Source of the DNA: an uncultured Clostridium sp.
Lineage (GTDB): Bacteria > Bacillota > Clostridia > TANB77 > CAG-508
Reading direction: 5' to 3'
DNA: 64,000 nucleotides
NCBI GenBank assembly: GCA_900553945.1
Contig: USFR01000004.1
Span: 60,161 to 124,160, forward strand
Of the stretch, positions 48,263 to 52,226 are shown one piece after another (positions within the stretch are counted from its first letter, which is position 1; each line of letters opens with the position of its first letter). The translations under genes and the position numbers were made by a program. A model generated the notes under the pieces. It saw only the letters and a program-made list of their open reading frames with translations. It did no database searches and was not told the origin of the DNA.

Positions 48263-48542
48263 GCACAATTCAATTATATTGGGTTGATTATTTGTGATAA
48301 TAGTTTGAAAAAAGTAAAAAATTACATAAGTCGATAAAAATACTATAATTAAATTAGTAGAAGTAATTGAGGTCGAGATTTAGTGACATAACGTACCTAA
48401 CAATAGGTAAAAAGAAATGTTTGGATAGTCACAGCCACCAATTATTTTATAGACACTTTAAAAGGTGTCTTTTTTATACTTAAACTTACGAAGAAAATGG
48501 AGTTTGCGAAAGAAATTAAATGTATTGTAAACTGTTCTTTAA

Positions 48543-48570
48543 GTGTTTATTTAAATATGCTAGAATGTAA
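48543..48570 (+). repeat. orphan degenerate CRISPR repeat
   Basis: gtttatttaaatatgctagaatgtaaat versus the array consensus. ~280 nt beyond the array end. Confidence 0.6.
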
Positions 48571-48627
48571 ATGGAGAAAAAGAATAATTTTGAGTGAGAT
48601 AATAGATGAAAAGAAACTAGGGAAAAT

Positions 48628-49227
48628 ATGAATAATAGAGGTGCTTATATGGCTAATTATGTTTTGAATAAAGTAGTTTGTACAGAGAAAATATTAAATG
48701 AATTTTTTATAGATTATTATCCATTTGAAAAAGATGAAAAATTGAAAGAACCATATATATCATTTAACAAGATATTAGGTAGGGATTCAATAAATAAATA
48801 TCACGAAAAGTATGGGGAAAGTATTTATTATGGTTGGGGATTTTCATATGAAAAAAATAGAAACGGCATGATAGAAATAAAATTTTTAACTAGATGGTTA
48901 TACCCAATTTGTGCAATAGTAAAAGCTGTTGAAATGTTTAAAGATGAATTAATTTGGTATGCGTGTGAGGAAAATAGAATATATCTTTCAAAGTTTTTCT
49001 GGAATAAGGGCGTATATGAAAAGACTTTGTATTTGGAAAATACAGAGTATGAGGAATGGGTTCATTCTAATGAAGATTTTTCAGAGAGTATAGAATATCC
49101 AAATGATGTGTTATGGTATTATAATTATGAAGATAGATCTGATTGGAAGATATGGAAATGTGATAATTTAATAAAAAGGTACTTTGATCAGTATCCTGCA
49201 AAAGAATATTATGAAGAGATGCAATAA
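48628..49227 (+). CDS. hypothetical protein
   Basis: 199-aa ORF with GGGAAAAT-type RBS. Rich in W/Y. Confidence 0.45.
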   Translation: MNNRGAYMANYVLNKVVCTEKILNEFFIDYYPFEKDEKLKEPYISFNKILGRDSINKYHEKYGESIYYGWGFSYEKNRNGMIEIKFLTRWLYPICAIVKAVEMFKDELIWYACEENRIYLSKFFWNKGVYEKTLYLENTEYEEWVHSNEDFSESIEYPNDVLWYYNYEDRSDWKIWKCDNLIKRYFDQYPAKEYYEEMQ

Positions 49228-49286
49228 AAAGGTTTTATTTAGAATAACGATTAAAAAATTGTAATAATTAAGTTTAGGAGAAAACT

Positions 49287-49715
49287 ATGCAAATTAAATA
49301 TATCAATAAAACTCCAACTGTAGATGAGTTTAATCAACTTACAGAAGCGGTTGGATGGGGAAGACGTGAAAATGCTGTCGTAGAAGAGGCTTTAAGATAT
49401 ACATTATATTCTGTTTGTGCGTACGATGAGGATAAATTGATTGGCTATGGAAGGATTATTGGTGATAAAACAATTTTTTTACATATACATGATGTGATGG
49501 TTCGACCAGAGTATCAAAGTATGGGAATTGGAACAGGTATAATGAATAATATTTTAGATGAAGTTAATGTGTATAGAGGCGTGAATCCTGGTATAAGAGT
49601 CTATTTAGGGGCTTCTAAAGGAAAAGAAGGATTTTATGAGAAGTTCGGTTTTGTTGATAGACCTAATGAAAGTCTTGGTGCAGGCATGGCTTGGAATAGT
49701 GATAATATGAAATAA
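49287..49715 (+). CDS. GNAT family N-acetyltransferase
   Basis: VRPEYQSMGIGTGIM acetyl-CoA binding motif. GGAGAA RBS. Confidence 0.7.
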   Translation: MQIKYINKTPTVDEFNQLTEAVGWGRRENAVVEEALRYTLYSVCAYDEDKLIGYGRIIGDKTIFLHIHDVMVRPEYQSMGIGTGIMNNILDEVNVYRGVNPGIRVYLGASKGKEGFYEKFGFVDRPNESLGAGMAWNSDNMK

Positions 49716-49756
49716 ATATAATGTTGAGAAATTAATTATGAGAGGAAACACTTAGA

Positions 49757-49843
49757 ATGAAAGTTTTGACGATTAAACAGCCATGGGCTACATTAATAAT
49801 GCAAGGTGATAAGAGATTTGAGTTTGTGGGAATACGATATTGA
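49757..49843 (+). pseudogene. 5' fragment of an ASCH-domain gene (truncated after 28 codons) embedded in a duplicated ~110-bp block
   Basis: MKVLTIKQPWATLIMQGDKRFEFVGIRY*. The block 49817-49926, including hairpin terminator 49879-49922, recurs at 52050-52158. Confidence 0.4.
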
Positions 49844-49991
49844 TGGCGAAAAAAAGTGATATTTTAATAGTTTGAGAAGTAAAAAGGTCAATTGCTGGAT
49901 TTAATAGGCAGTTGATCTTTTTACTTTAATGAATCTCTCTAAATAATGCTGGGAGAGAGTAATAAGCTGGTATGTAATAATGTACATATGG

Positions 49992-50020
49992 GAATATATT
50001 TTTTAATACATTAGAATATA
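49992..50020 (+). repeat. orphan, strongly degenerate CRISPR repeat
   Basis: ...taatacattagaatataaat versus ...aaatatattagaatgtaaat. Confidence 0.35.
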
Positions 50021-50104
50021 AATTCTTAATATCATTATAAAATAATCATTTAATCTTTGATATAGCTTTTGCAATTAAATTTCCATTATTTATATTTAAT
50101 TATA

Positions 50105-50734
50105 TTATGCTTCAGTCCATCCTAGTTTAATTAATTCATTTTCTAAATAAGATAAACCTGTTAAATTATCATTATTGATTTTTTTTAAATAATCCAAATC
50201 TACTTGTAAATGTTTCGGAAACTTGATATAGTCTTCTGCCATTCTTTTTATTCCTAATGGACATAAATATGCAGGGGTTGCTCTTGAATGAATACCTAAT
50301 GACATATTTTTATTGACCAATGATAAATCAAATAAATCTATATCTAAATCTATACCAAACAATGTTTTAACTGATTCTTTAGTTAATTGAATAAAATAAG
50401 GTATTCTAATTACTTTATAGCCATTTTCTTTATAAATTTTATTCTTAAGAATGTCGTTTAATATTATGTCTGGTTTTTGATAATGTGGTAATCCATCAAA
50501 TTCAATAATCATTTTCAAAGTTTCACTTCTAAAATCTGGCCTAAATTTACTTATTTTTCCTTCATAATATAAATTTGGAACTATTTTATCATGAATCCAA
50601 TCATCTATATTAGGAAATAGATACTTTAAATAAGTGTCTAATCCTGTTCTAGGTAAACCAGTATCTCTATCTATTCCTGCTTTTATAGCTTCTTCTTCAG
50701 TTTCTCTTAAATATCCAAAAATCATTTCTATCAC
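50105..50734 (-). CDS. DUF559/Vsr-like PD-(D/E)xK endonuclease-fold protein
   Basis: RPDFRSETLKMIIEFDGLPHY resembles the R.D...IEFDG..H core of DUF559-type nucleases. Confidence 0.45.
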   Translation of the reverse strand: MIEMIFGYLRETEEEAIKAGIDRDTGLPRTGLDTYLKYLFPNIDDWIHDKIVPNLYYEGKISKFRPDFRSETLKMIIEFDGLPHYQKPDIILNDILKNKIYKENGYKVIRIPYFIQLTKESVKTLFGIDLDIDLFDLSLVNKNMSLGIHSRATPAYLCPLGIKRMAEDYIKFPKHLQVDLDYLKKINNDNLTGLSYLENELIKLGWTEA

Positions 50735-50767
50735 CGCTTCTTAATTATATAATATTTTAACTATTTT

Positions 50768-50799
50768 GTATATTAATTTGAATATATTGGAATGTAAAT
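50768..50799 (+). repeat. orphan degenerate CRISPR repeat
   Basis: gtatattaatttgaatatattggaatgtaaat. Confidence 0.6.
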
Positions 50800-50800
50800 A

Positions 50801-50885
50801 ATGAACTAGCAAGAAGAAATTTTGTTTTGTTGATAGATCTAATGAAAATCTTGGCACAGGAATTGTATGGGATAGTATAGCATAA
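50801..50885 (+). pseudogene. duplicated 3' fragment of the GNAT gene
   Basis: Corresponds to 49640-49715 (ttttgttgatagatctaatgaaaatcttggcacaggaattgtatgggatagtatagcataa versus ttcggttttgttgatagacctaatgaaagtcttggtgcaggcatggcttggaatagtgataatatgaaataa). Confidence 0.5.
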
Positions 50886-51002
50886 ATATATAGATAAAGT
50901 TTTAAAAAAGTATATGAGTTTGCAAAGTTTTTTCATAATTTTGAAAAAACTTTACTGTAATACAAGAAGATAGTATAATTATTATAGTTAGGAGGAGATT
51001 GT

Positions 51003-51977
51003 ATGTGTACAGCTGCAACATATAAAACAAAAGATTTTTATTTTGGTAGGACGTTAGATTATGAATTTTCTTATGGAGATGAAATAATTATAACACCAAG
51101 AAATTTTGAATTTAATTTTAGAATGGGAAAGAAGATGGAGAATCATTATGCGATAATTGGAATGGCGCATGTGGCGGGCGATTATCCATTGTATTATGAT
51201 GCGATTAATGAGAAGGGATTAGGAATTGCAGGATTAAATTTTGTTGGAAATGCTTATTATAATGATTGTGCTGATGGAAAAGATAACATTGCTCAATTTG
51301 AATTGATTCCATGGATTCTTTGCCAATGTGAAACTGTAAAAGAAGTAAGAGAGTTGTTGAAAAATATTAATATAACTAATGAGCCTTTTAGTGAGAAGTT
51401 TCCATTGGCTCAGTTGCATTGGATTATTGCTGATAAAAATGAAGCGATTATAGTTGAATCTATGAAGGATGGCTTAAAGGTGTATGATAACCCGGTTGGA
51501 GTTTTGACGAATAATCCGCCATTTGATAAGCAGATGTTTGAATTGAATAAATATATGAATTTATCTTCTAAGTCACCTCAAAATAATTTTTCAAATAAAT
51601 TGAATATGGAATATTATAGTAGAGGTATGGGGGGTATTGGTTTACCTGGAGATTTGTCTTCACAATCAAGGTTTGTTAGAGTTGGTTTTGTGAAGATGAA
51701 TTCGGTATCAGATGATGATGAAAAGTCTAGCGTTAGTCAGTTTTTTCATATATTGAATTCAGTTGATCAACAACGTGGTTGTTGTGATGTTGGTGACGGT
51801 AAATATGAAATAACAATTTATACATCTTGTTGTAATGCTAGTAAGGGGATTTATTATTATACTACTTATAATAATCATCAGATTACTGGGGTGAATATGT
51901 TTAAAGAAAATTTAGATGGAGATAAAATTATAAAATATCCCGTGATTGAAGATGGTTTGGTTAGATGGCAAAATTAA
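51003..51977 (+). CDS. choloylglycine hydrolase family (bile salt hydrolase / penicillin V acylase, Ntn hydrolase)
   Basis: N-terminal MCTAATY (Cys2 nucleophile after Met removal). ~324 aa. GGAGGAG RBS. Confidence 0.75.
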   Translation: MCTAATYKTKDFYFGRTLDYEFSYGDEIIITPRNFEFNFRMGKKMENHYAIIGMAHVAGDYPLYYDAINEKGLGIAGLNFVGNAYYNDCADGKDNIAQFELIPWILCQCETVKEVRELLKNINITNEPFSEKFPLAQLHWIIADKNEAIIVESMKDGLKVYDNPVGVLTNNPPFDKQMFELNKYMNLSSKSPQNNFSNKLNMEYYSRGMGGIGLPGDLSSQSRFVRVGFVKMNSVSDDDEKSSVSQFFHILNSVDQQRGCCDVGDGKYEITIYTSCCNASKGIYYYTTYNNHQITGVNMFKENLDGDKIIKYPVIEDGLVRWQN

Positions 51978-52226
51978 TTTTAGTGAAAATTTTGGTTGGC
52001 AAGTAGAGGATGTTCAAATGTTTGATGAACCGATAGAGGCGAAGGGACATTTGAGTTTTGGGAATATTATATTGATGGCGAAAGAGAGTAATATTTTAAT
52101 AGTTTGAGGAGTATAAAGATCAATTGTTGGTTTTAATCAGCAATTGATCTTTTTTATGTGAAAAAATTAGTGAAATAAAAAGTACTTGACATCGTTACGT
52201 AATGATGATAAAATAATGTCAAAGAG

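Follow-up and report, generated by a model that had tools for sequence, protein, structure and literature searches.

CRISPR arrays can be split by inserted DNA or can collapse through recombination between their repeats, and both are known courses of array evolution. Lone repeats outside of arrays have been described as well: Shmakov et al. (2023; PMC10120712) described standalone repeat-like copies as being gained and lost dynamically, and treated those which are unconserved or targetless as degraded and non-functional. Other degenerate repeats are in use, as in the CreTA, CreR and CrePA elements (PMC8501985, PMC9458426, 10.1101/2024.01.05.574328), where the guide of CrePA represses a phage-derived toxin (10.1101/2024.01.05.574328). 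The subject here is three solitary repeats, R1, R2 and R3, which lie beyond the end of a type I-B array in a 64,000-nucleotide (nt) stretch of DNA from an uncultured human-gut bacterium (Clostridium sp.; assembly GCA_900553945.1, contig USFR01000004.1, positions 60,161 to 124,160 of the forward strand). This whole stretch is called the window, and positions refer to it. The finding is best read as an unusually well documented instance of the known phenomenon of degraded standalone repeats and not as a new gene-capture device. Probably, all three are fossil type I-B repeats in a recombination-prone defence island, located between a conserved left flank and merR-VIT/VWA, and as such they need no present-day function.

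Like the standalone repeats of Shmakov et al. (PMC10120712), those of the window are single, partly degraded repeats outside the array and near a type I locus; unlike them, they have kilobase gene-carrying segments between the copies, and two of the three survive in conspecific strains without a cas locus at the site. The likeness to interrupted or collapsed arrays lies in an insert between the terminal repeat of the array and R1 and in a gene between R2 and R3, with similar cases in related loci, but no transposase or insertion sequence element is present here, the inserts being a candidate small-RNA gene and a phage-type nuclease gene. With CreTA, CreR and CrePA (PMC8501985, PMC9458426, 10.1101/2024.01.05.574328) the locus shares degenerate repeats in which the handle end is kept, one of them adjoining a phage-derived gene, but it has no psi-repeat/psi-spacer/psi-repeat unit, no partial target flanked by a protospacer-adjacent motif in the window and no position in or upstream of the cas operon, and the neighbouring gene is intact where the island is missing. 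Short repeats alternating with single genes superficially recall integron gene-cassette arrays as well; in contrast to these, the open reading frames of 36-56 kb include no integrase, the repeats are not attC-like, the orientation is mixed, the DUF559-like gene and the bile-salt hydrolase gene (BSH) each come with a promoter, and what lies between the repeats is natively syntenic in relatives.

The locus offers a worked example of CRISPR array decay and of a cas locus as a swappable allele in a defence-island hotspot, in which fossil repeats outlast the cas genes, two of these repeats enclose a phage-type gene and genes close by survive as partial duplicates. For annotation it calls for caution, as lone repeats together with duplicated gene ends can mimic a cassette-capture system. 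Its significance would be greater only if the lone repeats prove to be processed and used as guides.

Solitary repeats downstream of the resident array

The 30-nt repeat of the resident array, GTATTAATTTAAATATATTAGAATGTAAAT, has eight perfect occurrences between 47704 and 48195. Conserved leader motifs set the orientation of the array as the plus strand, and R1, R2 and R3 share this orientation, all of them downstream of the trailer end. No further site with up to 7 mismatches to the repeat exists on either strand of the whole 64 kb. The window has a G+C content of 28% and the repeat is very AT-rich; second-order Markov simulations of 64 kb, both strands, gave 0.11 chance matches at up to 7 mismatches, 0.015 at up to 6 and 0 at up to 5. 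R1 and R3 are beyond doubt genuine repeat derivatives. For R2, the match becomes significant once position and strand are taken into account (roughly p = 0.003-0.007), and BLAST also aligns it to repeats of related arrays. An earlier note on this DNA had described three extra degenerate repeats in array orientation that should align better than random AT-rich sequence does, with a 199-aa hypothetical (hyp199), a GNAT gene and a minus-strand DUF559-like gene between them. The repeats are there, the simulations speak against chance, and the genes are as stated by their open reading frames and Pfam matches. More than 10 independent assemblies, made with different assemblers from different samples, have identical junctions down to the base, so the arrangement is not an assembly artefact.

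At a distance of 60-72 nt from R1, R2 and R3 no partner repeat was found, the best sites having 15-17 mismatches, which is background. Having no array-spaced neighbour (~66 nt), the three copies are solitary relics and not array members. R1 stands 281 bp past the terminal repeat, beyond the inserted candidate small-RNA gene, and lies in the 5' leader of hyp199. R3 is the only copy directly at junctions: the promoter of the DUF559-like gene abuts it on one side and a GNAT fragment lies 11 nt off on the other. R2 and R3 are one step nearer to the ATATT... variant of the repeat, which is found in some related loci, than to the resident GTATT... form, although the difference is weak; R3 has just 2 mismatches to the ATATT... 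variant of related arrays.

The related loci and contigs collected for comparison with the window carry L-numbers. Conspecific contigs were found via look-ups with a 99%-identical DUF559 protein, and sister species (about 95-97% nt identity) by scanning genomes for the VIT/VWA protein that is encoded downstream. The conspecific contigs L118-L121 are 97.5-98.6% identical to window positions 49262-57211 and carry GNAT, the deleted ASCH, R2, DUF559, R3, the GNAT fragment (GNAT_B), BSH and merR, and at this locus they are without cas genes, array, R1 and hyp199. R2 is identical in L118-L121 and in L122 and L123; R3 is present in the cas-less strains, with an extra substitution in L118 and L120. 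Since R2 and R3 are kept at ~98% in cas-less conspecifics, they are independent of the present array.

Between R2 and R3 lies the DUF559-like gene, whose coding part (50105-50725/50734) is preceded by its own promoter (TATACA-17-TATAAT, 50772-50744) and whose product belongs to a widespread family of ~200 residues. Its closest relatives (75-79% identity) are found in contigs of T4-like gut phages, between the capsid gene gp23 and gp13, and another homologue lies in a phage-like element; cultured phages gave a single distant DUF559 match, and an IMG/VR scan with a DUF559 pattern gave none. Nucleotide homology to the phage contigs (79%) spans gene and promoter (from 50119 up to ~50787), with R3 as its limit, and the 81 nt from R2 to the end of the gene are not phage-like. 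Judged by these relatives, it is a phage-type accessory gene. Once the gene and its promoter are taken out, only about 81 nt separate R2 from R3, as would be expected if the gene had entered a spacer in a small relic array.

Solo positions of the gp23/gp13 type are of the kind taken by free-standing homing-endonuclease genes. The DUF559-like gene resembles such genes of T4-like phages in its solo place between gp23 and gp13 and in its nuclease-fold domain, but here it is chromosomal, and any nuclease activity or homing is putative. In phage contigs L029 (4815-5432), L034 (8001-8612) and similar ones the gene stands alone, and in L034 it adjoins a phage endonuclease I-like gene. As for its surroundings in the window, the reverse complement of R3 (50770-50798, minus strand) reads TTTACA-17-TAATAT just upstream of the DUF559 promoter. 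With the change of the first base of R3 from G to A, the canonical TAATAC becomes a better -10 hexamer, and a promoter role may thus have been acquired by the fossil repeat.

The cas island and the rearranged genes beside it

Within the species, the block from about 39147 to 49261 behaves as a presence/absence allele, which contains the cas promoter and operon, the leader, the array with its terminal repeat, the small-RNA insert, R1 and hyp199; its right junction lies ~25-38 nt upstream of the GNAT start (about 49250-49262). The cas-less conspecifics keep the flanks without the block, so the stretch from cas to hyp199 is a swappable allele. To the left of GNAT, L118-L121 have the 192-aa gene of the sister species, and positions 4557-5886 of the sister contig L012 match L118. 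At the left junction of the cas-less alleles no repeat relic was found, gapped alignment scores of 17-20 being within background. Gene calls on an identical contig name the Cas6, Cas8b (CXXC), DevR and Cas5d families; an exact look-up of the Cas2 sequence matched no record.

A second cas+ strain, L122, has 26 repeats, followed by the same terminal repeat, the same 281-bp insert and an identical R1, all at 98-99% identity, and a deletion in it joins hyp199 to GNAT. The 8 spacers of the window and the about 26 of L122 (reverse complement 1374-3088) have none in common, even at the trailer end. As the flanks are 98-99% identical and no spacer is shared (47734-48232 compared with L122), the comparison implies that the array was replaced wholesale and did not grow stepwise. 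An array running on contiguously through this region, which the earlier note had proposed to seek in related genomes, was found in no relative, and L122 halts at the same terminal repeat.

The insert between the terminal repeat and R1 is a candidate small-RNA gene: a promoter (48321-48349, ATTACA-17-TATAAT) precedes a structured RNA of ~90 nt (about 48356-48446; fold z-score -3.4) and a terminator (48451-48476). The skipping-rope family of Rfam (RF02924) matches 48362-48446 at full length but weakly, at 22.1 bits, below the gathering score of 36.7; a terminator after the RNA is also described for this family. L122 has the insert at 98-99% identity, whereas none of the other related cas loci that were examined contains it, and no skipping-rope RNA at the gathering score was found beside hyp199 homologues or related arrays.

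The sister species L012 has the 192-aa gene, GNAT, an intact ASCH, a terminator and merR, and is without cas genes, BSH, DUF559 and repeats. In L013 the order is 192-aa gene, GNAT, 3 kb of other genes, intact ASCH, BSH, a duplicate ASCH 3' piece, terminator and merR. Neither sister contig has repeats or cas genes at the locus, within the 5.8-6.8 kb of sequence that each covers upstream of the VWA gene. The more distant L136 carries a GNAT pseudogene, DUF4268, hyp198, GNAT, an intact ASCH, BSH, a fused second ASCH and NUDIX, and no CRISPR repeat. Window positions 48628-49825, with hyp199, GNAT and the ASCH 5' end, are colinear with L136 at 87%, the homology starting 55 nt after R1.

The duplicated gene ends can be followed in the same genomes. 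The copy of the GNAT 3' end past the last repeat, which the earlier note had reported, is real; its homologous part starts at about 50811/50815 and ends at 50885, and 62 nt of it align at 81% identity. The block around the terminator does occur twice (49824-49922 and 52056-52154; 86% over 99 nt), as claimed, but it consists of the last ASCH codons plus terminator and not of an ASCH 5' stub. That stub (49757-49825) stands at the first copy only; the second is preceded by ~130 nt of ASCH 3' coding sequence. In comparison with the intact ASCH of L012 (5818-6216) and L013, the deletion junction of ASCH_A falls within the 10-nt direct repeat ATTTGAGTTT (49816-49825), which intact ASCH genes hold twice, and this is the mark of a microhomology deletion. 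The same fusion of ASCH 5' to 3' ends is also present in L136, and the BSH/ASCH junctions are common to L013 and L136. Because partial GNAT and ASCH duplicates occur in these repeat-free relatives, they are tied to the locus, the repeats playing no part in them: the partial copies are a clade-wide feature of an often-rearranged locus and not scars of CRISPR-repeat recombination.

The notion of a cassette-like mosaic made by recombination at repeats or terminators thus survives in part. A mosaic of inserted and rearranged genes is what the locus is, but the mapped junctions are not at repeats or terminators: the island junction lies upstream of GNAT, the ASCH deletion lies at microhomology, and the BSH/ASCH junctions recur in repeat-free relatives. 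A decayed extension of the array, likewise proposed, is plausible for R1, which may be an old outer end and is kept with its context in L122, and is not supported for R2 and R3, which persist in the cas-less L118-L121.

Table 1. Features of the locus, in order of position in the window
Feature	Position	Strand	Description
Left anchor of island	39127-39146	+	Motif CTCATAACCCGAAGGT(A/C)TAT, common to cas-less alleles; divergence directly after (window, L118 and L012 aligned)
Type I-B cas operon: cas6, cas8b, cas7, cas5, cas3, cas4, cas1, cas2	39351-47512	+	Pfam matches
CRISPR leader	47513-47703	+	Motifs TCTGTCGA / GACAGA / TAGACAGA; alignment of leaders from 8 related loci
Resident type I-B array	47704-48262	+	8 perfect repeats, 8 spacers, degenerate terminal repeat; called active
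Terminal repeat	48233-48262	+	7 mismatches, decayed 3' end
Insert, candidate small-RNA gene	48263-48542	+	Promoter and terminator scan, fold, Rfam
R1, solitary repeat	48543-48572	+	GTGTTTATTTAAATATGCTAGAATGTAAAT; 4 mismatches, intact 3' end
hyp199	48628-49227	+	No Pfam, PHROG or NCBIfam match
GNAT_A, intact acetyltransferase gene	49287-49715	+	Pfam; 88-91% nt identity to sister species
ASCH_A, pseudogene	49757-49843	+	5' 69 nt joined out of frame to last codons
Terminator hairpin A	49877-49926	+	Goes with ASCH_A 3' end; copy 1 of twice-occurring block; inverted and direct repeat
R2, solitary repeat	49994-50023	+	ATATATTTTTTAATACATTAGAATATAAAT; 7 mismatches
DUF559-like gene (Vsr-type nuclease fold) and promoter	50105-50772	-	Pfam DUF559; PHROG 559
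R3, solitary repeat	50770-50799	+	ATATTAATTTGAATATATTGGAATGTAAAT; 3 mismatches
GNAT_B, diverged 3' fragment of second GNAT gene	50811-50885	+	76-81% to GNAT_A
Palindrome (50924-50953), promoter TTTACT-17-TATAAT (50951-50979) and ribosome-binding site, driving BSH	50924-51000	+	
BSH, bile-salt (choloylglycine) hydrolase gene	51003-51977	+	Pfam CBAH; NCBIfam bile_salt_hydro, 507 bits
ASCH_B, ASCH 3' fragment	51979-52107	+	About 130 nt, frameshifted; remnant of BSH insertion into ASCH
Terminator B	52115-52152	+	Copy 2 of twice-occurring block; orthologous to sister-species ASCH terminator

Origins of the repeats and their possible present use

Scanning metagenomes with Cas1 yielded 80 loci whose repeats are of one family with the resident repeat, and in the closer ones ASCH and BSH adjoin cas in several orders (ASCH-cas-array-...-BSH, cas-array-BSH and BSH-cas-array). 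An array beside ASCH and BSH is an old theme in the group, which makes a former array at the position of R2 and R3 plausible. Interrupted arrays are present as well: in L074 a 4.2-kb gene segment is followed by a three-repeat mini-array, and the arrays of L089-L091 and L078 hold inserts of 233 bp and 475 bp, respectively. On this background we propose that R1 would be what is left of the resident CRISPR side at its outer part, where a small-RNA gene would have entered the array and the distal repeats would have collapsed by repeat-repeat recombination. R2 and R3 would be the collapsed remainder of another, older array stretch, and the phage-type DUF559 gene may have been inserted, with its own promoter, into the spacer between them. 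Later homologous or homeologous exchange between strains and species could then have shuffled the modules.

Several observations weigh against this account. The end of the repeat that codes for the 5' handle of the CRISPR RNA (crRNA) is nearly intact in R1-R3, the opposite of the decay of the terminal repeat, and this could hint at constraint. No longer array was found at the R2/R3 position in any genome, so that the older array is one that we infer only. Junctions on both sides of R3 are also what a repeat-directed process would be expected to leave. Presence and absence alone do not decide between gain and loss of the island. Finally, the variation among strains favours the account, with 21 variable sites found in 1271 nt as opposed to 1 in the 60 nt of R2 plus R3, so that these repeats change at the rate of their surroundings, which is neutral behaviour without excess conservation; the strains compared are, however, only ~2% diverged, too close for a real selection test on 30-nt elements.

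The most literal alternative takes the array to have run from 47704 to about 50800, with R1-R3 as internal repeats and the genes inserted at repeats or terminators. The shared orientation of the three copies beyond the trailer end, the position of R1 merely 281 bp past the terminal repeat and its travelling with the cas island are all in keeping with this, as are the related arrays that are broken by inserts and the direct succession of cas, array and BSH in L056, an order similar to that of R3, the BSH promoter and BSH in the window. Such an array would, however, hardly leave R2 and R3 in conspecifics that have no cas genes, array or R1, and the hyp199-GNAT-ASCH block between R1 and R2 is native and syntenic in the repeat-free L136. 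The mappable junctions avoid repeats and terminators, R2 and R3 lean, if weakly, towards the ATATT... form instead of the resident one, and a contiguous array was found in no relative. We therefore consider a single long array unlikely.

Less likely again is that the repeats are at work today as crRNA-like elements of the CreA, CreR or CrePA kind, cut by Cas6 and guiding Cascade to the promoter of a toxin-like gene (DUF559) or of the cas genes. It is equally improbable that R1-R3 are retained as signals recognised by Cas6 or Cascade, which would tie the expression of accessory genes to the CRISPR state; if this were true, R1 in the hyp199 leader and R3 on the promoter of the phage-derived nuclease gene could act as a CrePA-like safeguard or as a regulator with targets elsewhere. 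Regulatory standalone repeats are common in type I loci (PMC10120712), R1 and R3 have kept their handle ends intact, and all but one of the 14 mismatches of R1-R3 fall within the first 20 nt (binomial p about 0.03). The overlap of R3 with the promoter region of a phage-derived nuclease-fold gene loosely recalls CrePA.

A guide test speaks against such use. The 36 nt after each orphan repeat and after the terminal repeat were searched on both strands with a seed-anchored comparison that ignored every sixth position, in 38-53.5 kb and then in the 64-kb window, and no target beyond chance was found: the best seed runs were 8-10 nt, and random 36-mers of the window gave runs with a median of 9 nt, reaching 11 nt at the 90th percentile. 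Without a second repeat at 60-72 nt there is no repeat-spacer-repeat unit, and the positions are not upstream of cas6 or between cas genes, as is typical for type I-B mini-arrays; a mini-array or repeat-like sequence upstream of cas6 was not found, nor were elements like R1-R3 in the 80 related cas1 loci. Strains that lack the cas island have an intact DUF559 gene, which would not be expected of a toxin repressed by Cascade, even if those strains could have cas genes elsewhere, and R3 is mutating in a cas-less strain.

Repeat-directed capture, in which Cas1-Cas2 or recombination at repeats would integrate 'giant spacers' such as a 745-bp phage fragment with DUF559 in an integron-like manner, is very improbable. 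That little else than a single phage-type gene and its promoter fills the R2-R3 interval, that the phage homology ends at R3 and that R3 meets junctions on both sides would suit it. It does not account for the 81 nt between R2 and the DUF559 gene end, which are not phage-like, for nearest phage genes of only about 79% nt identity, or for an R1-R2 interval that is a native gene block in L136. The units moreover stand at the trailer end, but Cas1-Cas2 inserts at the leader, and the 1112 unique spacers from about 80 loci of the repeat family have only the normal length of 35-38 nt. There is no integron integrase, the repeat RNA or DNA is unstructured, unlike attC, and DUF559 runs against the repeats, on the other strand, under a promoter that it brings along.

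As improbable as capture is the arrival of the repeats with DUF559 on a now defunct mobile element, as phage-borne solitary repeat mimics (RNA anti-CRISPRs or viral crRNA-like RNAs). Such mimics are known from phages (PMC10120712; 10.1101/2024.10.29.618823), the DUF559 homologues are phage accessory genes and R2 and R3 are found in cas-less strains. The phage contigs themselves do not bear it out: L021-L028, which a dedicated repeat scan covered, have no repeat-like sequence at up to 8 mismatches, and L029-L037 gave no repeat-type BLAST match to the R2 query 49927-50104. No IMG/VR contig holds the repeat pattern, a 19-mer from R2 giving 7 scattered, uninspected matches there that are taken as chance for an AT-rich 19-mer. 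The context of R2 and R3 is chromosomal, and no other phage genes, integrase or att-like ends lie around them. Chance similarity in AT-rich DNA or a chimeric assembly at repeats could draw on the low G+C content of the window, the AT-rich repeat and the 7 mismatches of R2, but the simulated match rates, the lack of any other window match at up to 7 mismatches and the identical junctions in more than 10 assemblies make this reading the least probable of all and effectively refute it for R1 and R3. Fossil repeats in a rearranging island are the reading that we retain.

Flanking sequences and related arrays

The whole region acts as a defence island, and the strain-specific genes of its flank differ from strain to strain: HNH and Mrr nucleases in the window (35317-36928), an OLD-like ATPase and TnpV in L012 (1810-3618), a helicase, Fic and a large NTPase in L118 (12805-20621), and an integrase together with a pemK RNA motif in L119 (12330-14146). 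Immediately left of the point at which the alleles diverge, a non-coding stretch from TTGGGGACAnnTGGGGACAA to CTCATAACCCGAAGGT is conserved (window 38960-39146; L012 4400-4577; L118, reverse complement, 8230-8410), which may point to a site of recombination or attachment or to an RNA with structure.

Homologues of hyp199 sit in varied contexts, including restriction-modification genes, WapI-type immunity genes, housekeeping genes and a transposase. A linkage of hyp199 to CRISPR was considered and rejected, as these contexts are unrelated and the L136 copy adjoins GNAT-ASCH-BSH without repeats.

The sequence that drives BSH is 93.5% identical to positions 311-387 of L088, where it lies upstream of an unrelated AAA-ATPase gene. 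Its palindrome, AAAGTTTTTTCATAATTTTGAAAAAACTTT, recurs alone upstream of other cas loci (L045 1550-1602, L048 2067-2120 and L051 1391-1462). From these occurrences, palindrome, promoter and ribosome-binding site together look like a portable regulatory block.

The 1112 unique spacers of the repeat family gave no match in the collected loci outside arrays. In the interrupted arrays of L089 (13137-13369; also L090 and L091) and L078 (8779-9253), the inserts share a homologous segment with a terminator and a ribosome-binding site; the L089 insert encodes a very basic peptide of 35 residues on its minus strand, MKELIKKAFSKIAVWKRQKARKKEVKAMFDMLKTL, and the L078 insert a protein of ~60 residues, and both could be small toxin-like genes. 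In L082 (1600-1770), the array is followed by a promoter-like TTGTATAAT and then by two degenerate repeats around a 31-nt spacer-like sequence, which partly repeats DNA just upstream; the arrangement is a candidate regulatory mini-array. The deposited taxonomy of the VIT/VWA-protein relatives is inconsistent, L012-L020 being variously labelled Clostridia, Clostridium sp., Melainabacteria, Cyanobacteria and Gastranaerophilales.

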